64,000 nt of DNA from an uncultured virus (IMG/VR IMGVR_UViG_3300008113_000157) (Duplodnaviria > Heunggongvirae > Uroviricota > Caudoviricetes): IMG/VR virus record IMGVR_UViG_3300008113_000157; one strand, written 5' to 3'. Under the pieces are notes generated by a model, which ran no database searches, had not been told where the DNA came from, and was given only the letters and a program-made list of their open reading frames with translations. Below, piece after piece: positions 37,635 through 61,791 of the stretch (position 1 is its first letter; every line of letters starts with the position of its first letter). Made by a program: the position numbers and the translations under genes.

Positions 37635-37875
37635 GGCTGCAACACTTTCAGACAGCGTACGAATCCCTGAGATCCCTTCGCGCGCAATGCTTTTCGGCTA
37701 CACGGCACTGCGGGAGATACAGAACAGTTCATCGAGAAGCTCGAGGTAATTGTCACTGTTTCAACACAAGCAAGACAGAAGAGTTAGCAATAGATCCAAG
37801 GGTCATTCGTCAAGCTGGACGTTAAACGCAGCCGTTACTTCTGCGCACGTTAGTCGCAGATCAAGAGGATCAATC

Positions 37876-38064
37876 ATGATCATCTACTTCACCCTGACTA
37901 CAGATGAAGCCATCTATCAGTTCCAGGTGAACAAGGAGGAGAATCTGGTGCGTGTCACCAAGATGATCCTCAAGGCTCAATGCCCAGGAGAGTGGCATCG
38001 CTCCACACTCATGACCGTAGACGCAGGGCGCAAGCTCGTGCGTCAACTACAGAAGACCAGGTGA
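37876..38064 (+). CDS. Small early protein
   Basis: MIIYFTL..., first gene of the plus-strand arm. Confidence 0.55.
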   Translation: MIIYFTLTTDEAIYQFQVNKEENLVRVTKMILKAQCPGEWHRSTLMTVDAGRKLVRQLQKTR

Positions 38065-38140
38065 GTTATAGCTCCCAAGCCAGGTGCAATGCCTGGCTCT
38101 GGTCATTGCCACAATCCAGTGGCATCTACTACCTAACACC

Positions 38141-38332
38141 ATGGGTTTCCGTACATCCCTCGGACGTGCATTCTCTGCAGCTACTCAGGCTGCATCACAA
38201 GAGTGGCACGAGTCTCAGCTTGATCGTCGCATCACTGGCGACGTCATCCGTTACAACGACCGTCGTATCACTGGCGACTACGCGCCAATCAACCAACGCA
38301 ACAACTCCCGCGTTACTTATAGCGGGCGCTGA
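38141..38332 (+). CDS. Small early protein
   Basis: MGFRTSLG...; internal DRRITGD duplication; follows element A1. Confidence 0.6.
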   Translation: MGFRTSLGRAFSAATQAASQEWHESQLDRRITGDVIRYNDRRITGDYAPINQRNNSRVTYSGR

Positions 38333-38407
38333 TCCGTAAGCGGACAGGGAGGTGCAAGTCCTCCCATCAGCATTGCCACAATCAGTGGCATCTACTCCAT
38401 ACCAACC

Positions 38408-38590
38408 ATGACTCAACAACTAGCTGCCGGCATCATCGCCGTTGCTACAACCATGGGTATTACTACCCAAGTCACCATCCATCTCCTGGATGTAGCTACG
38501 GCTAAGCAATGTCGCACTCATGACTGGCCGGCAACACAACACAGCGCACACATGGAATGGTGCGCAACCAACAACTATCCAACCAACTGA
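38408..38590 (+). CDS. Small early protein
   Basis: 60 aa; follows element A2. Confidence 0.65.
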   Translation: MTQQLAAGIIAVATTMGITTQVTIHLLDVATAKQCRTHDWPATQHSAHMEWCATNNYPTN

Positions 38591-38667
38591 TCCGTCTAAG
38601 CGGGTGACCAGGTGCAAACCCTGGTCCAGTTATTGCCACAATCCCGTGGCATCTATCCCATACCAAC

Positions 38668-38868
38668 ATGGCGGACATGCAAATCTTTGCAGTTTACAAA
38701 GACAATAGCGACAGGTATATATCTGCTTGGAGAAATTATTCCGACGCATATGCGGCGGCAGGTGAAATACAAGCTATGGATCCAGAAGCAACTTACTCCG
38801 TTCACACTATTGAAGAGGAAGAGTTTTCTGATTTCTGGTTCCACAATCTACATTTAACACTAGTCTGA
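38668..38868 (+). CDS. Small early protein
   Basis: 66 aa; follows element A3. Confidence 0.65.
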   Translation: MADMQIFAVYKDNSDRYISAWRNYSDAYAAAGEIQAMDPEATYSVHTIEEEEFSDFWFHNLHLTLV

Positions 38869-38939
38869 TGGTGCAGGAGGGGTTCGATTCCCCTCCCAGG
38901 CATTGCCACAATCCCGTGGCATCCACTCAACACAACACT

Positions 38940-39134
38940 ATGTATTACATCATCATTGATGGCGTACAACATGGTTTCTCCCTTCAATGGGAAGAAGCAC
39001 TGATCGAAGCTGCACAACAAGACCACATGCTTAACTCGCCGGAGTTAAACGACGGCATCCAAGGCACGCATGACGTACAAATCATGTCCTTCCAGGAGAT
39101 GATGGAGGCCGACGACGTTGTGATGGTCATCTGA
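38940..39134 (+). CDS. Small early protein
   Basis: MYYIIIDG...; follows element A4. Confidence 0.65.
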   Translation: MYYIIIDGVQHGFSLQWEEALIEAAQQDHMLNSPELNDGIQGTHDVQIMSFQEMMEADDVVMVI

Positions 39135-39208
39135 CCAGGCGTGAGCCGGGGCATCGAATGCCCCATACAACTATTGCCACAATCCCGTGGCATCTACTAC
39201 ACAACACC

Positions 39209-39439
39209 ATGTTGATCTACCAGCCTGAGTTTGACACTCGTCATCGCGTCATCTGGAATGGAGGTGACAGCTCTATGCTTCACTTCCAGAAACTGAAGGA
39301 CGGCGAATGGAAGTACCTTGATAGCGTGACGTTTATGTCCATGCCTACAGGTACCAAAGAACTTCTCTACGAGATGAGAGAGTATTACAACTTCTCTATG
39401 ACCATGCTCCAGGACATCATGTATGCGATAGCATTCTGA
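39209..39439 (+). CDS. Small early protein
   Basis: MLIYQPEF...; follows element A5. Confidence 0.65.
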   Translation: MLIYQPEFDTRHRVIWNGGDSSMLHFQKLKDGEWKYLDSVTFMSMPTGTKELLYEMREYYNFSMTMLQDIMYAIAF

Positions 39440-39535
39440 TCCCTGCACTTAACCCTTCCGTTGTGGTATGCATGTACTACGACGGTGGGTTCTCTGCAGG
39501 ACTCACATCCTGCTCATCAACATCACAGTATTCTT

Positions 39536-39919
39536 ATGTTCAGCTCCACAATCATTGGCTATGTCACCGACCTCAAGGTGCTCAAGTCCAGGGAAGACGA
39601 TAGTTATTTCCTGGCGGTAAGTATTGCAGTCAACGATCCATTTGGTGGTTCGTGCCGCTTGCGGTTTACGAACAGCAATGGGTTACTTGCTGCATACAAC
39701 AAGGGCACCTTGGTGACAGGCCATCAGCTCATTCTCACGCAGTGGAATGTACGCATCAGCACAATCAAGACGCACTACCAGAAGGATGGACAACTAGTGA
39801 CACTCAAGTACCCTGAGATCAAACTCACAGGTGTACGTGCCACTATCGGTGCGGCACCAAGGCCCAAGGCTATTGCTGCACCGTCTCAACCTGAGGAAGA
39901 AGACTACCTGGACTTCTGA
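39536..39919 (+). CDS. Possible OB-fold (SSB-like) protein
   Basis: TIIGYV...FLAVSIAVN beta pattern and acidic C-terminus EEEDYLDF. Confidence 0.45.
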   Translation: MFSSTIIGYVTDLKVLKSREDDSYFLAVSIAVNDPFGGSCRLRFTNSNGLLAAYNKGTLVTGHQLILTQWNVRISTIKTHYQKDGQLVTLKYPEIKLTGVRATIGAAPRPKAIAAPSQPEEEDYLDF

Positions 39920-39947
39920 CACACCATCTAAATCCAACTAACAACTC

Positions 39948-40145
39948 ATGTCCAACTCATTCAAAGACTCCTGTGTTGCTCTTGTCATTGGCATTGGTAG
40001 TGGCTTACTCCTATCTACTGGAGTACAGAAGCTACTCAACCAACACTACGAAGAACACTGCAACGCAAGACCAAACCACAACCTTATACGTACACAAGGA
40101 CTCTTAGGAGACACATACTACTGTATCCACAGTAAGTACCTGTAA
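39948..40145 (+). CDS. Small membrane protein
   Basis: 65 aa with an N-terminal hydrophobic segment. Confidence 0.55.
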   Translation: MSNSFKDSCVALVIGIGSGLLLSTGVQKLLNQHYEEHCNARPNHNLIRTQGLLGDTYYCIHSKYL

Positions 40146-40239
40146 TCTGCACATAACTCTCCCGGTAGTACACATGTATTGCCGGTGAGTTTTCTGCAGG
40201 TCACACCTGCACTACACCACACGACACCAAGCTAGTTCC

Positions 40240-40479
40240 ATGAACTACCAAGCTGTTGAACAACTTCTCACGCAGGATGCTCGCCTGCTTGCCAGAAGAG
40301 ATGCCCCTGTCATTGATCAAGAACTTGAAGAACAGCGTCAAGCTGCTCTCGAGATCTTCTTCCAATGGCAGGATGGCATGCGTGAGTACCAAGACCTTAT
40401 GCCGTTCTGCGTTGTACTTCAACGTAAGGTAGATCTCAACAGGGATCTGCTTCGTTGGGAACGCAGGCATGAGGACTGA
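40240..40479 (+). CDS. Small early protein
   Basis: 79 aa; follows element B2. Confidence 0.6.
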   Translation: MNYQAVEQLLTQDARLLARRDAPVIDQELEEQRQAALEIFFQWQDGMREYQDLMPFCVVLQRKVDLNRDLLRWERRHED

Positions 40480-40551
40480 CTCCTGATTGGAGGGGCTTCG
40501 GCCCTTCCCACCAGGACTCAACATCCTGGATTCCATTCCATTGCATTTAAC

Positions 40552-40827
40552 ATGTCACTAACAGTTGGCAAAGAAGAACTTGACTCTGCAATTGCAGTGT
40601 TCAAGATAGAGCATTACTACCTGGAGTTCGATGACAACATCGTCTATCTCCATTGGGTAGCGACAACATCCCAAGCTCGTGAGTACATTGATGCATTCCT
40701 TGAGTGTCTCGATGTACTAATTGACGAGCGATGGGTAGATACCTACGGTTCGCACGAACAAGGTAACCCTGTTCAGCTACCAGATGAAGACTACATTTGC
40801 TGTCGCTATATCCTGGAGACCGTTTGA
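40552..40827 (+). CDS. Small early protein
   Basis: 91 aa; follows element B3. Confidence 0.6.
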   Translation: MSLTVGKEELDSAIAVFKIEHYYLEFDDNIVYLHWVATTSQAREYIDAFLECLDVLIDERWVDTYGSHEQGNPVQLPDEDYICCRYILETV

Positions 40828-41104
40828 CATGAAGACGATCTATCGCATGCGTAACGGTTTTATCCAGATGGATTCTTATGGTGAGACTCATAAGTCCAAC
40901 CATCTATTGAAAGCTGTGGTGGCTGCACTCATACTTGCCGCTAGCATTAGCACCATCGCAGCACTAGCCAGTAAGTACACGATGCTTGGCCCACAGGGCA
41001 TCAACGCATCCAAACCGTACGTCATGGGCTACTAGCTAGCCATACCCTGGGCCTTCCTCCATGAGGATATAAGTCCCAGTCAACCAACCAACTCATCAAT
41101 CCCC

Positions 41105-41479
41105 ATGCGCAATCGAGTATCTATCGTCAAGGAAGATCGGATCTGGCAACTCAGGTGCCAGGGATATGACTACGACTCAATCGGTAGCATTGTCAACTGC
41201 AATCCTCGTTACATGACAATTGTATTGCGTCGAGTGAGGCGTCGTCCTCCGATCGAGAAAGACCCAATCAAACGTGGTCGTCGCAGTAATTTCCTCAGCG
41301 ATAATCAAGTAGAAGATATTCGTATGCGCAAAGCACAAGGTGAGACTGCACTATCTATTGCCAAGGACTATCACATTGGTGAGTCAGCGATCTGTAAGAT
41401 TGCTAACAACGTAACCTATAAGGAACCTGCATACGACAGCGGCTATAGATATAACTTTACTAATAGGCTCACTCGTTAA
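41105..41479 (+). CDS. Double-HTH DNA-binding protein
   Basis: LRCQGYDYDSIGSIVN and LSDNQVEDIR...GETALSIAKDYHIGESAICKI. Confidence 0.65.
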   Translation: MRNRVSIVKEDRIWQLRCQGYDYDSIGSIVNCNPRYMTIVLRRVRRRPPIEKDPIKRGRRSNFLSDNQVEDIRMRKAQGETALSIAKDYHIGESAICKIANNVTYKEPAYDSGYRYNFTNRLTR

Positions 41480-41548
41480 TAACACTAGGCATCCACACCA
41501 TGTGTGGTGTAAGTCCTAGTCAATTCATTACTCAACTCAACTCAAACC

Positions 41549-41905
41549 ATGACGACACAACTAGCCGAGCACATCCAAGTACTTGAAGCTCGCATCAATT
41601 GCCTCATCGACAAGCTCCTTGCTAGCTACGCTAAGCGCTATGGAGATGGCGGCATTACCTTTGACATTGTTAAAGGTACCAAGTACTACAAACTTATTCA
41701 ACGTGACGTCAAGCGTTCAGCTATTGACGGCAAGACTGGTGCATCAGTCCATGCATTTATTGACCGTCAATCTGGCGCTGTCTACAAACCAGCAAGCTGG
41801 GCGTCACCAGCTAAGCACGTACGCTACAACCTCATGGACGACGTATCGTTTGCCACCTGCATCCAAGATGCTGATTGGGCTGGCTCATATCTGTACATGA
41901 AGTAG
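41549..41905 (+). CDS. Conserved phage hypothetical protein
   Basis: G.KYYKLI...SVHAFID...GAVYKPASW..PAKHVRYNL, a pattern common in large phages. Confidence 0.7.
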   Translation: MTTQLAEHIQVLEARINCLIDKLLASYAKRYGDGGITFDIVKGTKYYKLIQRDVKRSAIDGKTGASVHAFIDRQSGAVYKPASWASPAKHVRYNLMDDVSFATCIQDADWAGSYLYMK

Positions 41906-43180: not shown

Positions 43181-43667
43181 GCTACGTCGTATAACACTAG
43201 CGTTATATCATTCGCTATTTGCGAATGGCGAATAGATTATCCCGAGTAATCGAAGTATTGGCATGTATTGGCAATTCTTTGTTGCCAAACAATATTAAGT
43301 ATTAATACCTACCCATCCCTGGTATGTACCTCTAACTAGTGGGTATGTACCAGGGATATCCTTCATTCCTATCTATATCTAGTACACACGTACCAAAAAT
43401 ATCTCCTCTTATACCAAGGGATAGTACACATGTACATGGGGAAGACGGGGGAAACCGTCAATACCATCTTATTCAACAGTGAATACAGTCTTATCTAACC
43501 CTCTATAGGGTTTCATACTCTTCTAGAAAGCTGTATGGATAAGCTGGTATTCATCCCTTAGGTACCAGGTTTAATACACTTTTTTAACAACGTATGAAAC
43601 CCTATATCTAAGATAATAAGACGGTATTCACCCTTCTATAACACGGTATTCATCCTTTTACCCATCC
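43181..43667. other. About 490-bp AT-rich non-coding region with palindromes and short repeats (origin/control region candidate)
   Basis: No ORF in the track; hairpin 43315-43357; GGTATTCA(T)CC at 43546, 43623 and 43645. Confidence 0.45.
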
Positions 43668-43916
43668 TCACCCAACCACAGACCTCACCTCAGGTCCAAA
43701 CCTACGCATCTGATCTAGCATTCTTATCTCTGCTTGTTTGTTTTGCATTGGAATACTTTCATTCCGTATCACAGATGTCAAGAAGTCCATCACCTTTTCA
43801 GGTGGTGGCATGGAACCTTGTGCTTTCATGTACTCTTGCTTCCATCCCTCAAGGAATGGACTACCACCAACCGCATACCTACCAGCAATTAACATAAGTA
43901 CAAACTCAGATCTCAT
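43668..43916 (-). CDS. Hypothetical protein on the opposite strand
   Basis: 82 aa ORF. Confidence 0.45.
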   Translation of the reverse strand: MRSEFVLMLIAGRYAVGGSPFLEGWKQEYMKAQGSMPPPEKVMDFLTSVIRNESIPMQNKQAEIRMLDQMRRFGPEVRSVVG

Positions 43917-43991
43917 CTAAGTTTAAGCCTGGGCATCCACACATTTAGTGTGGTGTAAGTCCCAGGGCATCTCCACTTACTCACAACAACC

Positions 43992-44243
43992 ATGCTTGTT
44001 TCCAAACTGATTGATCAACTACTTAAAGCACAGAACAAATACGGAGACTTTGACATTTGCGTTTGCGATTCTTCCGAAGCAAACAATGTCGAATCGATTA
44101 CTGACGGAGTTGAGTTTAACTTTCGTTTGTTTAACGAGAAAACTTATGAAGAATTACCTGGAATTAGTTTTGAAGAAGAAGAAGAACAAGATGTTGATCA
44201 CCAAAGTGCTAAGTACTTTGGTGTAATCTTCCGTGACTACTAA
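43992..44243 (+). CDS. Small acidic early protein
   Basis: 83 aa between elements C5 and C6. Confidence 0.65.
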   Translation: MLVSKLIDQLLKAQNKYGDFDICVCDSSEANNVESITDGVEFNFRLFNEKTYEELPGISFEEEEEQDVDHQSAKYFGVIFRDY

Positions 44244-44909: not shown

Positions 44910-45103
44910 CTAAGAAATCTCCCATTAGTTTTGATCGCACCATTCATGGTGTGAACATCACTGAACATGGTATCAAGTCAGTAAGTAAACAGATCAAGCT
45001 TGGTCCATTCCAACTGACTGTCAACGCCAGTCCCAATGGCGTCAAAGGATCAGTCAGTATCCCTGGCACAGGCTTGAGCATTCCAAACATTAAGTTAATC
45101 TAA
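44906..45103 (+). CDS. Small beta-rich protein (DUF4236-like)
   Basis: KQIKLGPFQLTVN.S..GV..SVSIPGTGLS. Confidence 0.5.
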   Translation: MTKKSPISFDRTIHGVNITEHGIKSVSKQIKLGPFQLTVNASPNGVKGSVSIPGTGLSIPNIKLI

Positions 45104-45521
45104 AGATCTGGGCATCCTTACGGTGTAAGTCCCACATCCAACTTCCATCTCAACATAACACCATGCCTAAGAAACAAGCACTCAATCCTCACTTCCCTAC
45201 TGGTCCTAGAACTATTACTCTTGATCTGACTGAAGATCAATGGTGGGCATTGATTAACATGCTCAGAGCACGCACTGATTTCTATAAGAAGTTGCGGTTT
45301 GATCTCATTAGATTAAAGGATGATGGCCTTGAGAAACAAATTGATCAGTACACTGAATCCATGGAAGACATTGTATCTATATTGGAATCAGTACAAGAAC
45401 AAGTAGCACCTTTGTATTACACAAAAGCAAAGCGTGCTGAGTGGCGTAAGCAACGTATTGATACACCTGATTTCCCATAAGTTAATCTAAAGATCTGGGC
45501 ATCCTTACGGTGTAAGTCCCA
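45091..45521 (+). repeat. Exact 44-bp direct repeat (45091-45134 and 45478-45521) flanking one gene
   Basis: TAAGTTAATCTAAAGATCTGGGCATCCTTACGGTGTAAGTCCCA occurs twice. Confidence 0.92.
45163..45480 (+). CDS. Hypothetical cassette gene between the 44-bp repeats
   Basis: 105 aa coiled-coil ORF. Confidence 0.65.
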   Translation: MPKKQALNPHFPTGPRTITLDLTEDQWWALINMLRARTDFYKKLRFDLIRLKDDGLEKQIDQYTESMEDIVSILESVQEQVAPLYYTKAKRAEWRKQRIDTPDFP

Positions 45522-45739: not shown

Positions 45740-45999
45740 TGACTGTCCTTGCTATCGAACACACATCATTCACTGACACTCATGTCACAGTTACAGCAGT
45801 TGTTGACGACATGCGCCTACTCTATCGGGCGACTCGCTTCGAGCCTGAAGAGTGGGCTCCTGCACTGTGCACAACAACTATTGAGTTGGATCCAGAGGAA
45901 CCGATTCCTCTTGACGAAGATGGCTTCTGCAGCTATCTTGATCAGCTCGATCCTCACTGGCAACTTGTTGACAACTCTGACTACGATCTAGATTCATGA
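45739..45999 (+). CDS. Small acidic protein
   Basis: 86 aa, TGATG coupling with the upstream gene. Confidence 0.6.
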   Translation: MTVLAIEHTSFTDTHVTVTAVVDDMRLLYRATRFEPEEWAPALCTTTIELDPEEPIPLDEDGFCSYLDQLDPHWQLVDNSDYDLDS

Positions 46000-46036
46000 T
46001 TGGTTTCTCAATTGAATTCAAACGCTGGTACTTAAA

Positions 46037-46558
46037 ATGAAACACAAACCTATCCCAGAAGAAATTGTTGAATACTTAAAAGTTGATTTAACAATTCCAC
46101 ATGGATTACGTTGGATCAAGCTAGTACCAAACAATAACAGGTGCAAAGTTGGAGATCCAGCTGGATCAAAATGTTCTAATGGTAAATATAATTTACATTA
46201 CAAACGAATTAAATACTACAATCATCGAATAATTTTTTATCTTCAAAACAATTTAGATCCGGATTATTATCAAGTAGATCATAAGATTCATGATGATAAT
46301 ACAGGAGAACTTCGCTTGGCAACCCATCAGCAAAATCATTTTAATCGTAGATCTTGTATTGGTTCTTCTTCTAAATACAAAGGCGTTTCATGGCATGCAA
46401 AAGACAAACGATGGGAAGCACGAATAGGATTTAACAATGAAATTATTTACATTGGTAAATACATAAATGAAGAAGATGCTGCAATAGCTTATAACCATGA
46501 GGCTATAAAGCTTTTTGGTGATTATGCTTTTATTAACACATTAGCAGAATGTCAATGA
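46037..46558 (+). mobile_element. Free-standing HNH-AP2 homing endonuclease gene
   Basis: HRIIF....QVDH...LRLATHQQNHFN (HNH) plus SSKYKGVSW....RWEARI...IYIG.Y..EEDAAIAYN..A..LFGDYA (AP2); more AT-rich than its neighbours. Confidence 0.88.
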
Positions 46559-46758
46559 TTGGATTTTCCATTGAGTTTAAAAAGTTTTATTTTGTACTGC
46601 GTGGTCCCAAGGGTCGAGTGTATCTGGCAACTGGCTTTGCTAAACGCATGCCAGTCATAATACTGACCGGTGATTACATACTGGAGCAGTGCATCGGCAC
46701 ATGGCCTGGTGATGAGACTGACGAAGAACTTCTTGATCAGTTGAAAGACATCCGCTAA
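46549..46758 (+). CDS. Hypothetical protein (apparent target of the HNH insertion)
   Basis: 69 aa; its N-terminus is duplicated upstream of the endonuclease. Confidence 0.6.
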   Translation: MSMIGFSIEFKKFYFVLRGPKGRVYLATGFAKRMPVIILTGDYILEQCIGTWPGDETDEELLDQLKDIR

Positions 46759-46813
46759 TTAACCGTCCTGGGCATGACGTTAAACTGCCTATTCTACTTA
46801 CTCATTTAACCCA

Positions 46814-47113: not shown

Positions 47114-47168
47114 TCAACCGTCCTGGACATGACGCTAAACTGTCCATTCCACTTACCTACACTACACC

Positions 47169-48908: not shown

Positions 48909-48957
48909 AGCCACAGCAGGGGCATCCTATCCTCGTAAATGGGATGCCTCTTTACCT

Positions 48958-49167
48958 ATGGACTACACCGATGACCAACTACTTGCCATGGCCATGGCCA
49001 ACATTGGTGAGTACATTACGGACAACTCACCGCAGTACATCTTGATTGAAGAAGATCCTCGCAATGAGGATGACTACGATAGCTGGACTTACGGAATGGA
49101 AGTCCTGCCTCAAGATCACACTTGGCAGTCAGATTCAATTGACGTAAGCCCAAGTGAGGCCGACTAG
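48958..49167 (+). CDS. Small acidic protein
   Basis: 69 aa ORF. Confidence 0.55.
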   Translation: MDYTDDQLLAMAMANIGEYITDNSPQYILIEEDPRNEDDYDSWTYGMEVLPQDHTWQSDSIDVSPSEAD

Positions 49168-49233
49168 CCCAACGGCAGAGGCAAGCGACTTAAAATCGCT
49201 ACAGTCCCGGTTCGAATCCGGGGTCGGCTACCA
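49158..49233 (+). tRNA. trnL: tRNA-Leu(UAA), 76 nt, short variable loop, CCA encoded
   Basis: Acceptor GGCCGAC/GTCGGCT, D-arm GCC/GGC, anticodon arm AGCGA-CTTAAAA-TCGCT, T-arm CCCGG-TTCGAAT-CCGGG, 3' ACCA. Confidence 0.9.
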
Positions 49234-49611: not shown

Positions 49612-49663
49612 GATCATCTAGCCAAGGACTACTCAGCCCCTGCGTAAGCGGGGGCCTTCCTTC

Positions 49664-49984: not shown

Positions 49985-50291
49985 CACACGCGTTACTTGT
50001 ACTGAACATCTGGGACCTGATGTAACCAAACGCTATTGTCGTTGTCTTGATTGTGGTTGCAAGTTCCGTACTGTTGAACGGTACGAAGTTGCTAAACCAA
50101 TTCCATTAAAAGCCTACAAACCTATTGGTACCAGGAATGGAAACTCTTTCTTGACTGACAATGATGTGTTGATGATTCGTCATCTACATCAGAAAGGATT
50201 GAGCAATGGTCAGATAGCAATACGCTATGACACTGCTCGCAGTACAATCTCACGTATTGTCAACTACAAAACTTACACCAACATCAAATGA
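49956..50291 (+). CDS. Zn-ribbon (NrdR/Ogr-like) plus HTH protein
   Basis: MNCRQC....RV......RYCRCLDCGCKFRTVE followed by GLSNGQIAIRYDTARSTISRI. Confidence 0.7.
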   Translation: MNCRQCNSSNTRVTCTEHLGPDVTKRYCRCLDCGCKFRTVERYEVAKPIPLKAYKPIGTRNGNSFLTDNDVLMIRHLHQKGLSNGQIAIRYDTARSTISRIVNYKTYTNIK

Positions 50292-50617
50292 CACAACAAC
50301 ACCCGATCACCCCACTACCGAAGCTATTCCAGAGGTGGTCAGAACAGTTTGAAGCAGGGAGACCACTCTATGCAATGTTTGAAGATATTTACAGAGCAGG
50401 AGCAGACGCTGAGCTGGAGGCGTGCTGTGAGTGGTTACAGGATCCTGATCTCAATGTAGACACTTACAAACTCCGCGCCGCACGCCGTCCTCAGCCGCCG
50501 AGCCTCAAGGAACAGGCGCTTGCTCTTGTCGAGCAGCACGAAGATGGTTGGCGACCGTCGCCCAAAGATTGGGACACCCTTCGTCGTGCCCTTGAACAAC
50601 TTCCCGACAACAACTAA
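50288..50617 (+). CDS. Hypothetical phage protein, paralogue 1
   Basis: HPITP...GADAELEACCEWL...LRAARRP.PPSLKEQAL. Confidence 0.7.
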   Translation: MTQQHPITPLPKLFQRWSEQFEAGRPLYAMFEDIYRAGADAELEACCEWLQDPDLNVDTYKLRAARRPQPPSLKEQALALVEQHEDGWRPSPKDWDTLRRALEQLPDNN

Positions 50618-50926: not shown

Positions 50927-51274
50927 ATGACACAAGAACACCCAATCACCCCACCGCCTGAACTGGTGCAGCAGTGGGTAGACGCTTACTTTGGCGGTGG
51001 AATCTCCCATGTAGACCTCGCTGCCCAAGCTGCCCAATGGGGCGCGGACCAGGAGCTGGAGGCGTGCTGTGAGTGGATTGACTCCTTTCAAAACAAATTT
51101 GTTTATGCCCATGATCTTCGTCTTGTCCGCCGCCCCAAGGCGCCGAGCTTGAAGAAACAGGCACTGGAAGCTTTGACATCTGCACCTGGGCCTGACTATC
51201 CCATTGTGATGACAATGCTTAACGCTGATCAACATGCCCTAATCCGCCGCGCCTTAGAGCAACTCGATGACTGA
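50927..51274 (+). CDS. Hypothetical phage protein, paralogue 2
   Basis: HPITPPPELVQQW...GADQELEACCEWI...RRPKAPSLKKQAL. Confidence 0.7.
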   Translation: MTQEHPITPPPELVQQWVDAYFGGGISHVDLAAQAAQWGADQELEACCEWIDSFQNKFVYAHDLRLVRRPKAPSLKKQALEALTSAPGPDYPIVMTMLNADQHALIRRALEQLDD

Positions 51275-52114: not shown

Positions 52115-52249
52115 TCTGATTGAGAGGTATAAAGAACCAGAGCAAGCACGCCAGTTCCTTATGGGGGCTGGCATCATTGATGAGAATGGAGACCTCATGC
52201 CTCCATATCAAAACACCTCAACCTAATTAACTATTACCACTAATCACCT

Positions 52250-52516: not shown

Positions 52517-52525
52517 TCACCTTTA

Positions 52526-52642
52526 CTAAAAGGTTGCAGCACTTTGCTTCTTCAGTTCTGTGACGGCATGCTTGGACTCCACATCCTTGCGTGCCAGCTT
52601 TTTCTTTTTGTCCACCAGGTAAACGATCAGTGCCTTGTTCAT
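52526..52642 (-). CDS. Small basic protein (38 aa)
   Basis: Hand translation MNKALIVYLVDKKKKLARK...; ATGA coupling with the DUF4278-like gene. Confidence 0.5.
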   Translation of the reverse strand: MNKALIVYLVDKKKKLARKDVESKHAVTELKKQSAATF

Positions 52643-52791
52643 TTGATTTGTCCTCCAGTGACGTAAGGAAAGTAGCAGATGTTACGGTAGGTCAGGCAAA
52701 GCCATGGACGGTGTGCTAAGTTCCACCATGCCTTGTCTGTCTTAGCCTGCTCCTCTTGGTTGTATTTGCAACCACGATACGTTAACGTCAT
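52639..52791 (-). CDS. DUF4278-like small protein
   Basis: MTLTYRGCKY ... LTYRNICY duplicated motif. Confidence 0.7.
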   Translation of the reverse strand: MTLTYRGCKYNQEEQAKTDKAWWNLAHRPWLCLTYRNICYFPYVTGGQIK

Positions 52792-53247
52792 GGCTTTGGT
52801 ATCTATTGATACGGAAAGTATATGACGATTGGTGTATATGATGTTGTTTACCAGGTAACACAACCATGATTTCTATTTCAGAAACCTGCAAAGAGTTCAA
52901 CAAAGCAATGGGTATCAAAGGAAGGTTTTTCCTTTTTGTCCTTGGTTTTGTTGGGTTATTGTTTCCAGGGTGGGTAGCCTACGTTGTTCTCTCTGGTCTT
53001 GCTAAATGTACAGAAGATAAAAATATGTATGTACTTTTAAAACAACTTGCAGACTAACAATGTCTTTTCTTTTGGCTCGTGTCACAGATGAATCTGATCT
53101 TCCAGATGATTACTACTCATTTGTCCAACAGTTTACATACTGGCAAGGAAGCTACGCTTCTCAACTTGATACGGAATCATTGATGATCTTGCTATGGCAA
53201 ATGGACAAACGTATTAAAGAGCTTGAGGCAAAGCAAAGTAATCTGCA

Positions 53248-53544: not shown

Positions 53545-53567
53545 CTAGCCATTACCACTAATCCTCC

Positions 53568-53960: not shown

Positions 53961-54233
53961 TCGCTTCTCCTAATCACCCATGAAATCACTCGACGACTAC
54001 ACAACGCTCGGCGCAATAGTCTTGGTTTTGATTGTCTTTATTGCTCTTGGTATCTGGTGGCTGCCTCAAAAATGGCAGGGCTGCCAGAAACTGTATGACA
54101 AAGTGCCTGCCCAGGTTGTTTGTTTCCTGAGCGAGTAAGCACCTTCACTAATACTCCCGAACGGGAAAATGGACCTGAGCACGTCCTAAAACTACTCATC
54201 AGTTTTCCTTATCATTCAACTCAACTCAACACC

Positions 54234-55015: not shown

Positions 55016-55249
55016 ATGGCTTACATCATTAGTACGTTGGTGGATGGTGTGCCACACGCCATCCATGCCAATAGTTCCGACTCCAAGTTTGAACTGTTAG
55101 CTTTGGATTCTGCTAGTTCACTTAGTAGAATTTACTCCCATCCTTACCGGGCTGGTGCTTATCAAGTTCTAAGTTGGATCCTGGACAATGAACCCACACT
55201 CTCCTGTTATGAGCTCCAGGTTTCCGATGAAGCCCGGTTCCAAAAATGA
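55016..55249 (+). CDS. Hypothetical protein
   Basis: 77 aa ORF. Confidence 0.5.
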   Translation: MAYIISTLVDGVPHAIHANSSDSKFELLALDSASSLSRIYSHPYRAGAYQVLSWILDNEPTLSCYELQVSDEARFQK

Positions 55250-57050
55250 ATCTTGGTTAGTCTTTGATATTGAAACCAATGGCCTCTACGATAAAGTCAC
55301 GAAAGTTTTTTGTATCGTTATCTACGATATCAACCGAGAAGAAACTTTTGCTTATGGGCCTGATCGCATTGATGATGCTCTTGCTCATCTGGCAACCGGT
55401 GATGTACTCATTGGTCACAATGTGATCTTCTACGACGTACCGGTTCTGCAAAAACTACATTCATTCAACTGCAAAACACGCATCCTTGACACACTCATCT
55501 GCACACGACTCATTTGGCCCAAAGAAAAACTCTACGACCTTGACGTACAACTCTATCCGGAAGTTCCGAAGAACTACCGCGGGATGGCCGGTCTTAAAGC
55601 CTGGGGTTACCGCCTCTCCGATAACAAGATTGAGTTCAAAGATTTCTCGGAGTACTCAGAAGAAATGCTTGTCTATTGCAAGCAAGACGTCTCGGTTACT
55701 TCAAAACTTTGGAGGCATATCGCCAACCAAGGCTATCCAGAACAAGCTCTCAAACTTGAACACGACTTTGCTCTTGCCATTAATAAACAAATTAGAGCAG
55801 GTGTTTCTTTTGATGTGGATGCAGCTATTGATCTTGTGGATAATCTCCGAGCAAGAGAAGCACAGCTTGAAACGGAACTAAAAGAAATCTTTCCGCCAAT
55901 CGAACATCGTAATTGGTTTACTCCTAAGGTCAACAATAAAAATCGTGGCTATGTCAAAGGAGTACCTTTTGAAAAAATCCATTACGAAGAATTCAATCCT
56001 GGATCTCGTGATCAAATTGCTGATCGACTCAAGGCTAAGTACGGATGGCAACCAGAAAAGACAACTGAAAAAGGAAATCCAATCCTTAATGATGAAGTGT
56101 TAGAGGCATTGCCTTATCCAGAAGCCAAGCCTCTGGCAGAATACATGCTCATCAAGAAACGCCTTGGTCAAATTGCAGATGGCAACAACGCTTGGCTCAA
56201 GCTGGTTAATAATGACAGCAGTCGTATGCACGGTGACGTTGTTACTAACGGCTGCGTCACTGGTCGTTGTGCTCACCGATACCCAAATATGGGTCAGGTT
56301 CCAGCAGGCTATTCGCCATACGGCAAAGAATGTCGGTCATTATTTCATGCACCACAAGGATGGGACATGATTGGTATCGATGCCAAAGCATTGGAGCTAC
56401 GATGTCTTGCTGGTTACCTTGCCATCTATGACGGTGGTGAGTATGCACGTGTGGTCACGGATCCAACAATTGACATTCACGTGTACAACCAAGAGCGTTT
56501 TGGTGTTGCTACCAGGGACATCAGTAAGCGTTTACTGTATGCCGTGTTGTATGGCGCTGGTCACCTTAAGGCTGGCAGCATTGTGGATCCGAATGAAAAA
56601 GATGAAGAAGTTCTGCGTAAACTAGGAAGAACTGCAATTAATTCATTCATGGCTGAGGTGCCAGCCTTGAAAGAACTTAAGGAACGTATTGAATCTCAGA
56701 TTGCAAACAATGATTGTCTCATTGGATTAGATCGCCGTATTCTTTATTGCCGTTCGGCATTCAAAGGATTGAATGTTTTATTACAATCAGCAGGCGCAAT
56801 CCTCATGAAGCAAGTTGTTATTAACATTCATGACAACATTGAGTCTGCCCTCAGTCTGCCCCATGGGGCAGAGTGGGAACAAGTCTTGATGGTTCATGAC
56901 GAAGTGCAACTGGTTTGTAGTCCCAAATACACTGAACAGATCAGAGCCCAAGCATTGGCAGCTTTTCCACAAGCACAGCAATTCTTTGGATTCCTCTGTG
57001 ACATTGAGGGAGATTCTCGTGTAGGATCCAACTGGAGCCAAACGCACTGA
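55227..57050 (+). CDS. polA: DNA polymerase family A (T7-like, 3'-5' exonuclease plus polymerase)
   Basis: ExoI FDIETNG, ExoII GHNVIFYD, ExoIII YCKQDV, motif A DAKALELR, motif B KRLLYAVLYG, motif C VHDEVQ. Confidence 0.96.
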   Translation: MKPGSKNESWLVFDIETNGLYDKVTKVFCIVIYDINREETFAYGPDRIDDALAHLATGDVLIGHNVIFYDVPVLQKLHSFNCKTRILDTLICTRLIWPKEKLYDLDVQLYPEVPKNYRGMAGLKAWGYRLSDNKIEFKDFSEYSEEMLVYCKQDVSVTSKLWRHIANQGYPEQALKLEHDFALAINKQIRAGVSFDVDAAIDLVDNLRAREAQLETELKEIFPPIEHRNWFTPKVNNKNRGYVKGVPFEKIHYEEFNPGSRDQIADRLKAKYGWQPEKTTEKGNPILNDEVLEALPYPEAKPLAEYMLIKKRLGQIADGNNAWLKLVNNDSSRMHGDVVTNGCVTGRCAHRYPNMGQVPAGYSPYGKECRSLFHAPQGWDMIGIDAKALELRCLAGYLAIYDGGEYARVVTDPTIDIHVYNQERFGVATRDISKRLLYAVLYGAGHLKAGSIVDPNEKDEEVLRKLGRTAINSFMAEVPALKELKERIESQIANNDCLIGLDRRILYCRSAFKGLNVLLQSAGAILMKQVVINIHDNIESALSLPHGAEWEQVLMVHDEVQLVCSPKYTEQIRAQALAAFPQAQQFFGFLCDIEGDSRVGSNWSQTH

Positions 57051-57103
57051 GCTCTTCGTCCTAAGTATGACGCTAAACTACTTATCACCTACTGTTTGAA
57101 CAC

Positions 57104-58138: not shown

Positions 58139-58361
58139 TCAGTTCACTCTCCTCTATGAGGATGAGCACACTAAACTTCTGTATGAATTCAAGGCTCTTG
58201 TTGCTGACGATGTAATCAATCACCTTGTGGATTTTCTCAAGGGTTGTGGCTACATGGAAAGCAGTATCTTTGAATGCATGAAAGAATCTTCTGAGGCATA
58301 TTTCGATTCATTACGTACTCAGCAGTACGTAATGAAATGGGACAAGCCTGAAGCAGAATGA
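58122..58361 (+). CDS. Hypothetical phage protein
   Basis: EF.....DDVI....DFLKGCGY motif. Confidence 0.6.
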   Translation: MTPTHDQFTLLYEDEHTKLLYEFKALVADDVINHLVDFLKGCGYMESSIFECMKESSEAYFDSLRTQQYVMKWDKPEAE

Positions 58362-58414
58362 TGATTCGTCCTGAGCATGACGTTAAACTGCTTACTCCTG
58401 ACTACGAAACAACC

Positions 58415-59431
58415 ATGACTTCTTCGATGACCACCAAGAAAACTTCTGCGCTTGCATCCAGGGGACTTGATTCCTTTAAGCTTTTCCAAGCCAAAGAGTT
58501 TGTTTCTGGCTACCAGAATCTTGTAACAATTCAACCACTAAACAAATCAAAAGTACGTGGTTGGTTTGTCCGCAAGTCTGATCTTGATACCTGCGGATGG
58601 ACTGCTACTGAAGATGAGTTTGCCAATGGTTCCGTCATCTGGAACTATAAGCAGACCTTTGGTATGGCACCTAATACCTCCATTGAAGAGGGACTTAACT
58701 TCACGGAACCTCGCGTCCAGATCTTGTTGCGTTCTCCACTCATGGTGGAAGAGACAACTGGGATGCGTCAAACGATTGGCACCTTTGAAGATCCAGAGGT
58801 CAAAGCCATGTTTGAAAATGACAAGATTGCATCCGACCTTGCTAACAGCAAGGGCGAGATGTACAAGCGTAAGTACAGTGTACGTACAAAGTACCTTGTA
58901 TATATCCTGACCCAGGACAACAAGCGTGCTCATAAGATCCCCATGGTGCTAACACTCAAGGGTCTTAACGGAACCGATGTTTCCGACAAGGTTAAGCTGT
59001 ACGAAAAGGAAATGTCTAAATGCCTGAGCAAGGCACTGGACTCTGAGGTACCGCTGGCATTCAACGAGAAGTTTTACGCCACTACGGTGTTTACTCCCGT
59101 CCTTGCCAACGAGATGCGTGGTGCTAACAACGTAGAGATTTGCGCCATCGAATCTTTTGACATCCCTGACTACAGCTCCCAAGAGGAAGCGGTTGCATCA
59201 TTGGGCCGCCTTTCGATTCCTGATGAAGATCGTGAATCGACTTGGAAGTACCAAGGGATGTTTGAAGACTATATAAATCAACATTCTCGCCAAGATGCGC
59301 AGCGTCTTGGTGGTGCTTACGGAATCAAAGATGGCGTACAGATTCTTCCCGTCTCACGCATCGCAGATGCAGTTGATGTGAAAGCATTGCCTGCACGCAA
59401 TGAACTAACCGGAGAAGATCTTAGCCTTTGA
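58415..59431 (+). CDS. Hypothetical replication/recombination-region protein
   Basis: 338 aa from the ATG after the pseudoknot element; follows SSB. Confidence 0.65.
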   Translation: MTSSMTTKKTSALASRGLDSFKLFQAKEFVSGYQNLVTIQPLNKSKVRGWFVRKSDLDTCGWTATEDEFANGSVIWNYKQTFGMAPNTSIEEGLNFTEPRVQILLRSPLMVEETTGMRQTIGTFEDPEVKAMFENDKIASDLANSKGEMYKRKYSVRTKYLVYILTQDNKRAHKIPMVLTLKGLNGTDVSDKVKLYEKEMSKCLSKALDSEVPLAFNEKFYATTVFTPVLANEMRGANNVEICAIESFDIPDYSSQEEAVASLGRLSIPDEDRESTWKYQGMFEDYINQHSRQDAQRLGGAYGIKDGVQILPVSRIADAVDVKALPARNELTGEDLSL

Positions 59432-59660
59432 GGCGGTTCAAGATGTCATGGTCAACTTGATTACTCATCAAGTCCATGGCATCCTTTACTAATCCTTTAA
59501 TAGCAACTTGACGCATCGTGGCGATCTTCGTTAGTAAGGTCGCCATTTCTTTTAGCTCACTCATTGAACTGCATTCGTTAATGGAACGTATCATCTTCTC
59601 TTGCCAGAAGGCTTCTTCTGGACCCATTTCAAATTGCAACATGGGATTCAATTGTTTCAA
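59421..59660 (-). CDS. Second, more distant NblA-like candidate
   Basis: EMGPEEAFWQEKMIRSINE...ELKEMATLLTKIATMRQVAIKGL two-helix pattern. Confidence 0.35.
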   Translation of the reverse strand: MKQLNPMLQFEMGPEEAFWQEKMIRSINECSSMSELKEMATLLTKIATMRQVAIKGLVKDAMDLMSNQVDHDILNRLKG

Positions 59661-59945
59661 AGTATTCTAACTACAACGTAAACTTAATTAAACCTTTTGT
59701 TTATGTTAGGGATTCAACACATGAAACCAGAAGACAAAGCTGCTCTTACCGTCGGTGCTCAAACTGCATTAGTGACAGCGGCTGCTGCCATCCTTCTGCC
59801 TAACCCAGTCTCCTGGGCGGCTGCTATAGTGGCAACGTACCGCATGGCCAAGCGTGCTCGCATCCAATCTCTGATTGACCAAGGGCAAGCCAAGTACTGG
59901 AGGGGGTAACCACCTGGTACAACACACCAACTCAATTCAAATCAA

Positions 59946-60881
59946 ATGCAAACACAAGTTGAGCTTAATGCAGCGCAAGCTGCAATCTATACACGCACGA
60001 ATCTTTCACGTGCCTTTCAAGACTTTGATGACACCGACATTGGTGGCATCTATTTGCGAGGCGATGATTGTGTTGTGGTGCGTCGCGATGGTAGCGAGCA
60101 AGCTTACAACAGGGAACTAATCAAGACTTCCTTTAACAACTACACCCACCGTCTTAAAGATTTCTTTTCCTATCTTGGTCCCAATTATCGTGGCCCTAGT
60201 GTATGGCACAACAATGCTTACATTCTTTTTAAGGGCTGGAACTACTCACACGCACTCGGACACCTGAGCTCCCATGCAAAACTACAAGCACACTGGGCTG
60301 ACAAATTTATACATGTATCAAACACCGACAAAGTCTTGCACCTCCTCCAGTCCGATCAAACGGATATTGGACATTTGGTTGCGCCAGACGGATTGCGGCT
60401 TCCGAATCGGCCCATTGACATTGACGGTGACATGGAAGCTGACGACTCCGAGCCTGTCATGGGTGAACCTTGGTGTTCGTGTGGGTCGTATCAGCGTCAG
60501 CTCAGCAACGTATCTGACTTTGCGTCCGAGATCCAAGGATTCAAACCCTGGTGCATCCACCTGACTTGGTTCAACAAGTACAGGGAACTGCTGTGCAAGC
60601 GCACCGAAGCACGGAATGCCAGTCCCAGTGGCACACCTGAGAAGTGTGTTGCCTGGTGGTATGCACCACCCGCTGATCACATCAGTGATGGACGCTTTGT
60701 ATTGTTGTATACAAACTCAGGTGCACAAGCTCCGCTCAGTCATTGGCGTACCTACAAGCCCAAGGATATCTTTACCCAGCATGATGCATGGGATCTGTTT
60801 TTCAATATGATGGAGGCTGGCTACGTTCCATTCCCTGGTACTGCATTGCCACAACTCAAGTCTGCTGTCAAAAAACAATGA
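59946..60881 (+). CDS. SWIM zinc-finger protein
   Basis: WCSCGSY-x17-WCIHL. Confidence 0.65.
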   Translation: MQTQVELNAAQAAIYTRTNLSRAFQDFDDTDIGGIYLRGDDCVVVRRDGSEQAYNRELIKTSFNNYTHRLKDFFSYLGPNYRGPSVWHNNAYILFKGWNYSHALGHLSSHAKLQAHWADKFIHVSNTDKVLHLLQSDQTDIGHLVAPDGLRLPNRPIDIDGDMEADDSEPVMGEPWCSCGSYQRQLSNVSDFASEIQGFKPWCIHLTWFNKYRELLCKRTEARNASPSGTPEKCVAWWYAPPADHISDGRFVLLYTNSGAQAPLSHWRTYKPKDIFTQHDAWDLFFNMMEAGYVPFPGTALPQLKSAVKKQ

Positions 60882-61325
60882 CATTTCAAATCGATAATGG
60901 CGTTGTTTACCTAGGTACTCAATGCCCCAGTACAATACTCAAAATTGAGTCAAAAGATTCAATGATTGACCCTGAGCTACGCAAGTATGCAACAGAGTTA
61001 GTCAACAAACCTTTTCCAAAACAAATGATGCTATCCAACGGCAAGTACTCACTACACCTTGAACTTGATGAAGACACTTACTGGGGTCTTGTTAAGCTAG
61101 GTGCAGAAATCAAAACTGATTGTGAAACTTATGCAGAACACATCCTCATTGGGCATATTGAATCCGGACTCGATCAACAAGCTACAGATTGAATGCATTG
61201 AAGAAGAGGATGGTTCCATGACCATTCATATCGAATGGGATGAAACAGATCCCGATCTTCAATGGTGGACAGATCTTGGCGCAGAAGGCCAAGAAACCTT
61301 TATGATTAATGCACTCCAACAAGCT

Positions 61326-61722
61326 TGTGATTGTTATGTCGATTGACACCTACGGCCTTAGCTCTGAGCAGTACACCGAGTTCTTTCATAAGAACATTCG
61401 TGCTGCAGCCAAGCTTTACTTGGATACCTGCAACATTTTGAGCAGCGAAGGGGTCGGCAATGTCGACTTCAAAACTGTCTCAGAGATGTACCAAGAAGCT
61501 GTGTACACTACCAATGATGATTGCCGTCGTTACCAAAAGAGTAACAACCCCGAGGCTCTCAAAGATACTGATCTGCTAGGTATCTATCCTTCTAGAGAAG
61601 AGCTGTTGGCTGAGATCCAGGCTGTCAATGCCAAGGTCGAAGCACTGAACGACTACGTTGCTGAGTTAGTTGCGGTCACCACCAAAGGGCTTACCGGCAT
61701 TGCTGATCGCCTGGTAGACTAA
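61326..61722 (+). CDS. Hypothetical protein (start uncertain, probably MSIDTYG)
   Basis: ORF with a C-terminal coiled coil. Confidence 0.45.
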
Positions 61723-61791
61723 ACCCGCCGCCCTGCAGGGACGCCGTCCTGGTCAAGACGTAAAACTGACCACCCATCTCAACACCACACC

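Follow-up and report, generated by a model that had tools for sequence, protein, structure and literature searches.

Structures placed between genes are known from several systems. In phage T7, RNase III processing hairpins stand between the early genes; mitochondrial transcripts are punctuated by tRNAs, and tRNA-like elements are cut by RNase P or RNase Z; in selective RNA processing and stabilisation, intergenic stem-loops and repetitive extragenic palindromic (REP) elements set the stabilities of the segments of an operon transcript; and T4-type phages carry promoter-stem-loop (PeSL) cassettes. Here we describe 23 structured intergenic elements, in four families called A to D, in a stretch of 64,000 nt of DNA from an uncultured virus (IMG/VR record IMGVR_UViG_3300008113_000157; hereafter the window) that is a relative of Synechococcus phage S-EIV1. 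We propose, with a probability of roughly 55%, that they are RNA-level punctuation modules which determine the sites of processing and provide shielded 5′ ends upstream of G-poor leaders lacking a Shine-Dalgarno (SD) sequence.

The closest described counterpart of family D is coremin, a 20-nt element that, in the papers cited here, is described in plant and other eukaryotic RNA viruses. It is given there as a stem of 3–4 bp (GUC/GAC), a loop YGAD or YGNNAD and a conserved spacer with UUAAAC (PMC10520033). According to these papers, the spacer reads G UUAAAC UAC with A16–A20 essential, loops may have 4–8 nt, a swapped middle stem pair is tolerated and a G at loop position 2 is necessary; the element stalls the exoribonuclease Xrn1 one base before the hairpin, obstructs scanning ribosomes and promotes −1 frameshifting, and a Watson-Crick pseudoknot version (an exoribonuclease-resistant RNA, xrRNA, called xrRNA-WCC) has been obtained by selection (PMC6546385, PMC10520033, PMC10321173). 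A flavivirus xrRNA, which is unrelated to coremin, blocks Bacillus RNase J1 in vitro, and such blocking therefore need not be specific to Xrn1.

Inventory of the elements

The DNA polymerase encoded at 55188–57050 is 66.9% identical to that of S-EIV1 and at most 60% identical to that of every other record, and near-identical and related contigs are present in IMG/VR. Structural genes, among them those for terminase, a virion protein and the major head protein, lie on the − strand in the left 37 kb. From about 37.8 kb onwards a + strand arm carries many small genes without a known family and then ThyX, a GP88-family gene, DNA polymerase A, SSB and others. All 23 elements reported for this arm by the initial annotation were located on the + strand, with five in family A, three in B, eight in C and seven in D, and they occupy successive zones as it had described: A at 38.05–39.19 kb, B at 39.44–40.53 kb, C at 41.05–45.52 kb and D at 46.76–61.77 kb, with one D variant at 37.81 kb that precedes the first gene of the arm (ATG at 37876).

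D0, 37808–37834, + strand: coremin-like pseudoknot variant; stem CGUC/GACG, 6-nt loop, spacer UUAAAC, stem 2 GCUG/CAGC
A1, 38055–38124, + strand: tRNA-like three-way junction with guard hairpin GCCAC/GUGGC
A2, 38328–38390, + strand: tRNA-like junction with guard hairpin; 6-bp acceptor-like stem containing the stop codon TGA (38330–38332), 6-bp T-like stem
A3, 38585–38651, + strand: tRNA-like junction (5 + 7 bp) with guard hairpin
A4, 38864–38921, + strand: tRNA-like, with canonical T-loop UUCGAUU and guard hairpin; the small side hairpin is absent
A5, 39124–39192, + strand: variant with T-like hairpin GGGGC/GCCCC and guard hairpin; junction less clear
B1, 39437–39515, + strand: long irregular hairpin beginning with the UGA stop; its basal 3′ strand can pair instead with a downstream copy (GCAGGA/UCCUGC)
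B2, 40143–40213, + strand: architecture of B1; base CUGCA/UGCAG, alternative hairpin GCAGG/CCUGC
B3, 40477–40530, + strand: architecture of B1 in other letters; base CCUG/CAGG, alternative hairpin CCAGGA/UCCUGG
C1, 41047–41079, + strand: hairpin with the conserved 3 × 7 internal loop (5′ CNU, 3′ URUAAGU)
C2, 41485–41519, + strand: outer stem CUAGG/CCUAG, a compensated variant
C3, 41913–41960, + strand: outer stem AUGGG/CCCAU
C4, 42218–42256, + strand: family C hairpin
C5, 43929–43965, + strand: family C hairpin on the left side of the contig joint 43965→44281
C6, 44251–44278, + strand: family C hairpin on the right side of the same joint
C7, 45108–45135, + strand: family C hairpin within the direct-repeat copy 45091–45134
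C8, 45495–45522, + strand: family C hairpin within the direct-repeat copy 45478–45521
D1, 46764–46791, + strand: coremin-like pseudoknot starting 5 nt after a stop codon, with an ATG 22 nt downstream
D2, 47119–47146, + strand: family D knot before the gene for a 579-aa PcfJ-like protein
D3, 54171–54198, + strand: variant with stem 1 GGAC/GUCC, before the GP88-family gene
D4, 57057–57084, + strand: family D knot before the SSB gene
D5, 58367–58394, + strand: family D knot before the DUF5895 gene (true start ATG 58415)
D6, 61745–61772, + strand: family D knot before a 37-aa open reading frame (ORF)

These numbers far exceed chance. In the 64-kb window the D core pattern matched six times (five true elements and one − strand stray) where 0.20 matches are expected, the C 3′ motif eight times against 0.74, and the pattern for the second hairpin of A four times against 0.00, missing A2 because the loop of A2 is one base shorter. 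Short intergenic gaps of 19–28 nt (e.g., 39920–39947, 52227–52249 and 53545–53567) were without structure.

The same element families, in broadly the same zone order, are carried by the matching arm of S-EIV1 (on its − strand), and 19 IMG/VR loci, found through the 579-aa protein (65–100% identity), have them in matching intergenic slots and, apart from a few stray pattern hits, on the coding strand only.

As with the T7 hairpins, the elements stand between early genes of what would be one long transcript, and those of family B are long enough (~22–28 bp) for RNase III. In contrast to the single fold of T7, at least four unrelated folds occur here, neither C nor D has the length that RNase III needs, and the host is a cyanobacterium. 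Stem-loop stabilisation and REP elements offer a second likeness, that of intergenic structures giving different stabilities to the segments of one operon transcript; the present case differs in that sequence-specific modules of several families stand at nearly every gap longer than 45 nt and that one of these families forms an xrRNA-type pseudoknot.

Compensatory changes around fixed loops

Covariation was measured by regular-expression scans and pair counts on MAFFT alignments. The D alignment comprised 54 sequences, namely 53 of the 55 unique pattern hits with a second stem of at least four pairs and the variant at 37808; two − strand strays and five hits with shorter second stems were omitted. 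Paired bases occupied 93.1% of its 535 cells, compared with 78.0 ± 0.9% after shuffling (none of 500 shuffles was as high) and 22–46% when the partners were slid. Both-sided changes were found at eight of ten pairs, including all six of the second stem, and stem 1 was paired in 100% of cells even though its first pair varies (CG 37, GC 13, UA 3, AU 1). For C, 47 of 51 anchor hits were aligned after four off-family hits had been dropped; here 90.2% of cells were paired (74.4 ± 1.2% shuffled) and 9 of 11 pairs were compensated. The C pattern recurs in IMG/VR at no fewer than 138 loci, with at least 93 unique instances in which the inner stems vary freely beside the fixed loop. The A alignment (18 sequences, 14 distinct) had 90.4% of cells paired (68.9 ± 2.0% shuffled) and 14 of 15 pairs compensated. 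Of the 13 B instances, 12 fold as a long hairpin in which the base (..CUGCA / UGCAG..) is kept while the apical stems are wholly different; the alternative pairing of B, between the 3′ strand of the base and a copy of it a few bases downstream, covaries by eye as well.

The initial annotation had stated that stems covary while loops stay fixed, and for D, C and A this was borne out on S-EIV1 and the IMG/VR relatives. The invariant loops are URUAAGU in C, UGCAAAC in A (where the T-type loop is partly fixed by the search pattern) and UUAAAC in D. The accompanying claim of G-U tolerance on the + strand fared less evenly, being clear for D (28 G-U against 8 A-C) and not for C (9 against 11) or A (2 against 2), and the wobble argument for the strand therefore holds only for D. 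Conservation with compensatory changes nevertheless supports the proposed RNA-level structure on the coding strand.

It also makes a role at the DNA level very unlikely. The elements would then be phage promoters, single-stranded DNA hairpins or selfish repeats of the REP or MITE (miniature inverted-repeat transposable element) type, with RNA structure incidental, and several facts would suit this: the TAAACT of D resembles a −10 hexamer, D follows terminator-like hairpins in some other phages, where a promoter would be expected, some Staphylococcus phage records annotate a predicted promoter over D, and the repeats do mediate gene gain and loss. However, compensatory changes in two interleaved stems are useless in double-stranded DNA. 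A conserved −35 element is absent, and sigma-70-like promoter sites in the arm are fewer than in shuffled sequence (16 against 31.0), with none at the elements. The elements are also kept in orthologous slots even where the neighbouring protein is only 65–74% identical, while selfish repeats behave otherwise, and D matches a motif whose function as RNA has been tested.

Two candidates for C were tried and rejected. The internal loop is not a kink-turn or sarcin-ricin motif, as its short strand is without G-A, and pairing of GUAAGU with ACUUAC in the leader is frequent and inconsistent; the same leader word follows D.

Family D and the coremin motif

A full-text literature search with the conserved 10-mer of D led to coremin, and family D belongs with the coremin kind, sharing the GUC/GAC stem and the UUAAAC part of the spacer. 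All 54 aligned sequences pair at all four positions of stem 1, which reads GUC/GAC in 42 of them, the other 12 having the swapped GAC/GUC; as in coremin and xrRNA-WCC, the closing pair is variable. The spacer is UUAAAC, CUAAAC or UAAAAC followed by U, and its AAA, which corresponds to three essential A's of coremin, is invariant; T18, C22 and T23 are at least 90% conserved. The last bases of the coremin spacer are replaced in D by a variable strand of the second stem. This second stem agrees with the antiparallel pairing of loop and spacer (bases 18–20) in xrRNA-WCC, in a register one base further 3′. Further likenesses to the described motif are a pyrimidine at the first and A-D at the last loop position (the loops of D in the window retain C and A-U there), tolerance of 6–8-nt loops, a loop-to-spacer pseudoknot (proposed for coremin, demonstrated for WCC), tandem or repeated copies, and occurrence at intergenic positions also.

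There are also differences. Coremin is described in eukaryotic RNA viruses, whereas the carriers of D are double-stranded DNA (dsDNA) phages and bacteria; the D loop of the window has U in place of G at position 2; the second stem of D has 5–6 bp and starts one base later than that of WCC, and the second hairpin that directly follows coremin is absent after D in the window; and D lies before genes inside operons rather than in a 3′ untranslated region, so that RNase J would take the place of Xrn1 as the nuclease.

Loops closer to coremin do occur elsewhere. Among the IMG/VR matches listed for D, 36 of 124 unique sequences have six-base loops, 25 of the 36 fit YGNNAD, and a hairpin follows in 20 of these 25. 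By the loop, these 25 sites are coremin members and the D elements of the window are not. Some have the loops CGAAAU, CGCAAU and CGAGAU, which are themselves reported as Xrn1-resistant. Some of the contigs with six-base loops are short and could be RNA viruses; others have 18–50 kb, and one contig of 28.8 kb holds both forms of the D loop, 1 kb apart.

D, at least, is accordingly not an undescribed family. For A to D alike, no Rfam family matches: a search of the window with Rfam 15, at gathering score and at E ≤ 1, returned only the tRNA discussed below and one chance match to a CRISPR repeat at 37680. Four element sequence strings gave no match in six supplementary files of a catalogue of 10,006 structured viral RNAs (PMC10690425), although the catalogue as a whole may include the motifs.

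Other identities considered for D were discarded. With a preQ1-I riboswitch or a pistol ribozyme D has no more than its topology in common, and there was no Rfam match and no room for further helices, and for −1 frameshifting or readthrough the slippery sites were absent by eye.

D-like knots in other phages and in bacteria

The D pattern was found at no fewer than 130 loci in IMG/VR, many of them on contigs unlike S-EIV1. A stricter pattern gave 79 matches in 77 loci of a species-level set of bacterial genomes, of which about 13 are expected at random by our own arithmetic. The matches come from many phyla, among them Bacillota, Omnitrophota, Planctomycetota, Saccharibacteria, Bacteroidota, Cyanobacteria and Desulfobacterota. 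Of the 79 matches, 66 have a second stem of five or more pairs, though it formed no part of the search pattern, and in a count over 63 of the 75 unique sites (12 with longer loops were omitted) all three freely varying pairs of the second stem were compensated, one of them reading GC 31, AU 24, GU 6 and other 2. An Rfam search of twenty of the bacterial loci yielded nothing relevant.

Named-phage records matching D number 114, of which 85 are Staphylococcus phages (S. aureus siphoviruses). In Staphylococcus phage B166 (locus L495) the knot lies between a head-morphogenesis gene and ORF41 with the major capsid gene, and in Lactobacillus phage phiEF-1.1 (L498) and Streptococcus phage Javan271 (L501), as in B166, it directly precedes the scaffold and major capsid genes. 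At this point of the late operon extra mRNA stability would make sense, since the proteins needed most are encoded there. In Nostoc phage NMeng1 the knot stands directly before a pseudo-tRNA, and D-like knots also occur in Synechococcus phage S-SM2, Mycobacterium phage Labelle, Microcystis phage Mwe-JY13 and an N4-like Vibrio phage.

This breadth bears on the idea that the elements are operators for RNA-binding proteins of phage or host, one family per gene zone, exerting timed control of translation or stability in the manner of the T4 RegA or gene 32 sites. Loops that stay invariant beside varying stems would suit protein binding, as would the succession of families along the arm, with a broadly similar order in S-EIV1, and most of the small arm proteins have no known family. 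Against this, the sequence of D is conserved across phages and many bacterial phyla with no evident common neighbour gene, so that a self-sufficient fold or a universal partner fits better than a phage-specific protein, and an RNA-binding domain was not found among the 60 arm proteins. We regard such operators as improbable.

A separate observation concerns about 25 of the bacterial loci (Omnitrophota, Planctomycetota, Peptococcaceae and Desulfobacterota; among them L165, L167, L176, L180, L184, L192, L200, L204, L207, L211, L212 and L217), where a tiny conserved ORF (..RYMLRPVAHCKEGCS..SWA) with an SD sequence of its own has a stop codon overlapped by a D-type knot. In Omnitrophota a palindromic promoter region precedes this ORF, and a putative Rrf2-type regulator, as judged from the first residues of that protein, follows it. 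The peptide matched no NCBIfam family.

Family A and a true tRNA

Family A forms a three-way junction of an acceptor-like stem that holds the upstream stop codon, a small CCG-loop-CGG hairpin, and a 7-bp hairpin with the T-type loop UGCAAAC. Among 128 unique IMG/VR instances the T-like stem has 7 bp in 126, the acceptor-like stem has 5, 4 and 6 bp in 82, 23 and 13 instances, respectively, and TGA overlaps the 5′ strand of the acceptor-like stem in 126. The stack of the two stems consequently amounts to 12, 11 and 13 bp in 82, 23 and 13 instances, respectively. The acceptor and T stack of a tRNA is 12 bp, and this stack with its T-type loop is the part that RNase P and RNase Z read. Family A thus has the feature of a minihelix, coaxial acceptor and T stems of about 12 bp with a 7-nt T-type loop carrying U1 and A5, which it shares with the tRNA-like elements cut by those enzymes; it differs from tRNA in having neither D arm nor anticodon arm and in placing the upstream stop codon inside the acceptor-like stem.

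Three nt after the stack a second module begins, and its kind varies between the hairpin GCCAC/GUGGC, a hairpin of greater length, a compact pseudoknot and a coremin-like knot of the D0 type; in IMG/VR relatives the D0-type variant knot follows tRNA-like elements. Three further features, beyond those of the initial annotation, were noted between the genes:

48918–48950, + strand: conserved hairpin whose loop (..CCUCGUAAAU..) is common to S-EIV1; the stem differs, with compensation by eye
49158–49233, + strand: true tRNA-Leu(UAA) in a slot of the element type
49634–49655: GNRA-type hairpin

The label of tRNA mimics given to family A holds for the fold, which is tRNA-like, and fails as a tRNA call, for ARAGORN and the Rfam model RF00005 called a tRNA only at 49158–49233 and none at the A elements. 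The true tRNA overlaps the last 10 nt of the ORF at 48958–49167, and the next ATG is 18 nt downstream of it. True tRNA and tRNA-like folds between the cistrons of a polycistronic transcript are also what mitochondrial tRNA punctuation presents. We also considered whether the T-like loop of A pairs with its guard hairpin to form a pseudoknot; A4 and S-EIV1 break this pairing.

In relatives (L009:2248, L015:3531, L017:4361, L022:4739 and many more) a compact pseudoknot often replaces the guard hairpin, with stem 1 ACCCA/UGGGU or GCCUA/UAGGC, stem 2 GCGG/CCGC or GUGG/CCAC, and a loop with GGAGAUG. The S-EIV1 annotation takes the ATG of this GGAGAUG as a start codon, probably wrongly.

Stop codons, leaders and start codons

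The elements start inside the upstream stop codon or within a few bases of it: the codon is overlapped by family A elements and by the true tRNA, whereas B begins 0–2 nt past it and D, in four of six cases, 5–6 nt past it. From the end of the element to the next ATG there are 16–35 nt (41 nt for the first element), with a length characteristic of the family (A 16–18 nt, D 19–22 and C 23–29). The G content of these leaders is 0–12% (22% for the first element), compared with 21% across the region, and the 25 nt before the start of all 57 arm genes consist of 31% A, 32% C, 11% G and 26% T. Only 6 of these 57 + strand genes have an SD-like 4-mer at −18 to −5. Upstream of 24 late − strand ORFs, whose start codons are those listed by the ORF tool and hence uncertain, the composition is 41% A, 19% G and 15% C, and 9 of the 24 have such a 4-mer. 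The elements do stand, as the initial annotation stated, between a stop codon and a leader without SD.

This arrangement invites an explanation through translation, in which the folds are barriers or platforms for ribosomes that uncouple adjacent cistrons, hold up ribosomes after termination, or offer the 30S subunit a standby or platform site beside the SD-less leader. In four of six cases D begins 5–6 nt past the stop codon, close to the end of the ribosome's mRNA entry channel, and the fixed leader length per family and the scarcity of SD-like motifs point the same way. Coremin, too, is reported to act as a mechanical barrier, blocking scanning ribosomes and stimulating −1 frameshifting. 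On the other hand, the knots of Firmicutes phages lie 40–70 nt upstream of genes with a normal SD, a real tRNA in one of the slots implies cleavage, and slippery heptamers before the stop codons were not seen by eye. We consider a translational role unlikely as the main function of the elements; it could, however, hold together with a role in decay.

Repeats and the turnover of small genes

The initial annotation also tied the elements to gene gain and loss, and for this there is some direct support from two places. A perfect direct repeat of 44 nt (45091–45134 and 45478–45521), which includes C7 and C8, brackets the gene at 45163–45480; by blastn the relatives hold a single copy of it. In a metagenome contig from run X18 (depth 179, probably DNA), C5 is joined to C6 (43965 to 44281) with long matching sides, and the gene at 43992–44243 is missing. 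Homologs of the bracketed gene were found in one of 15 relatives, elsewhere and again with a C element following, and homologs of the gene at 43992–44243 in none of the 15; some relative loci extend only 2–5 kb upstream, which makes absences at the far left weak evidence. The genes at 41105–41479 and 41549–41905 are in reversed order in two relatives (L008 and L009). The most variable genes lie in the A, B and C zones and the core genes in the D zone. Synteny breakpoints at elements add no independent test, since an element is present in almost every long gap. The elements probably act, as the PeSL cassettes do, as homology for shuffling the small variable early genes that they flank; the PeSL cassettes differ in having an early-promoter consensus attached, which is not the case here, and the present elements are conserved in structure at orthologous sites.

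Two other rearrangements were observed in the arm. At 46037–46558 a gene for an HNH/AP2 homing endonuclease (PHROG 99, E 8e-38; Pfam AP2) lies inside a small gene (45999–46036 and 46556–46758) whose first codons are duplicated on both sides with synonymous changes; in relatives such as L008, L010 and L014 the surrounding stretch is continuous without the insert. The paralogous genes at 50288–50617 and 50927–51274, 640 nt apart, begin with a 61-nt direct repeat of 74% identity and match the same loci by tblastn, and their copy number varies among relatives.

Proposed processing and shielding of mRNA ends

We infer the following enzymatic steps from where and in which orientation the elements lie, from their conservation and covariation, from the resemblance between D and coremin, and from the presence of a tRNA in one of the slots. 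The elements would act in cis, as RNA structures on long + strand transcripts from the replication (early/middle) arm. As interchangeable modules they would fix the sites of cleavage and the points at which decay halts, leaving every cistron, or every small group of cistrons, with a shielded 5′ end and an unstructured leader. Family D, as a Watson-Crick pseudoknot version of coremin, would halt a 5′→3′ exonuclease, in cyanobacteria RNase J, 1–2 bases before its first stem. The tRNA-like minihelix of family A may be recognised by the tRNA-end enzymes RNase Z, RNase P or both; family B, a hairpin of ~22–28 bp, could serve RNase III; and the invariant 3 × 7 internal loop of the short family C hairpin points to a specific partner. 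As repeats, the elements would in addition provide homology for gaining and losing small genes.

We prefer processing and shielding of RNA ends to chance structure because a tRNA occupies one slot, because family A combines a tRNA-like stack with a guard module, and because family D is a knot of the xrRNA kind. In particular, D resembles a motif that was experimentally seen to stall a 5′→3′ exoribonuclease, and it therefore fits the protected 5′ ends that the initial annotation had proposed.

Several observations weigh against this reading. The D loops of the window are of 8 nt, C-U-N4-A-U, with U at position 2 in place of the G; no downstream hairpin follows D1–D6, the second stem (5–6 bp, loop to tail) standing there instead. 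To our knowledge, Vibrio lacks RNase J, and the D-like site in the Vibrio phage weakens a restriction of D to RNase J hosts. Cleavage by RNase P at an A element, or at the true tRNA, would cost the upstream gene its stop codon. The 60 arm proteins hold no recognisable RNase or RNA-binding protein; more widely, Pfam and PHROGs recognised no RNA polymerase, RNase or RNA-binding domain among 60 + 22 + 8 proteins of the window. The excess of G-U over A-C is clear in D only, and the hexamer-like TAAACT of D would allow a DNA-level role. Among sequencing runs, 17 DNA runs contain the sequence, as do, at a small share, three that are recorded as RNA or presumed to be so. Two of these three are probably DNA, and the third is a metatranscriptome with 23 short contig pieces at depth 2–10, too thin for transcript ends or coverage steps. 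Finally, the zoning by family, in which the initial annotation saw perhaps one element class per temporal zone, could equally come from local spread of copies.

Other features of the arm

Upstream of the arm, a terminator-like hairpin with a T run (37377–37398) closes a small + strand ORF (37104–37340). It is followed by a geneless gap of ~400 nt (37400–37807) ahead of the first D element, part of which (..CTTGGGCAAA..) is common to S-EIV1; this gap is probably the promoter region of the arm. A second gap, of ~750 nt on the + strand (43181–43928), has a 21-mer in three copies (43539, 43616 and 43638), long palindromes at ~43300–43360 and a − strand ORF at 43668–43916; the gap of S-EIV1 at the matching place is 467 nt long. 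It may be an origin or promoter region. The best conserved stretch of the arm, 52517–52865, has 76–91% nucleotide identity in those relatives in which it has a match (10 of 12), compared with ~70–80% elsewhere. It lies between + strand genes and contains small − strand ORFs (52526–52642 and 52639–52863), with a strong GGAGG before one ATG as seen by eye, and could encode a regulator pair or a non-coding RNA.

Significance

In the papers cited here, natural exoribonuclease-resistant RNAs are described in eukaryotic viruses. Our literature search found none in phages or bacteria among the best 20 of 181 papers, as judged by title and opening of the abstract, although subscription papers and the remaining supplements of PMC10690425 could hold one. 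No paper searched links the coremin motif with phages, and in three coremin papers the words "phage" and "bacteri-" are unused.

Tentatively, and at somewhat less than even odds, coremin-type knots may be a widespread device of dsDNA phages and bacteria against 5′→3′ mRNA decay that sets the 5′ ends and abundance of cistrons, such as the scaffold and capsid cistrons of Firmicutes phages, and S-EIV1-like operons may be built from swappable units, some meaning "cut here" (tRNA-like element, long hairpin) and others "stop here" (knot, guard hairpin). If true, prokaryotes would have their own equivalent of mitochondrial tRNA punctuation, joined to xrRNAs in the style of the flaviviruses. Should D indeed stop RNase J, it would raise the question of whether one fold spread across bacterial and eukaryotic viruses or arose twice, it would provide a portable mRNA stabiliser of 28 nt for bacteria that have RNase J, and it would explain how phages tune protein amounts from one long transcript. 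The window is also an unusually clear case in which SD-less leaders are paired with modular upstream structures.

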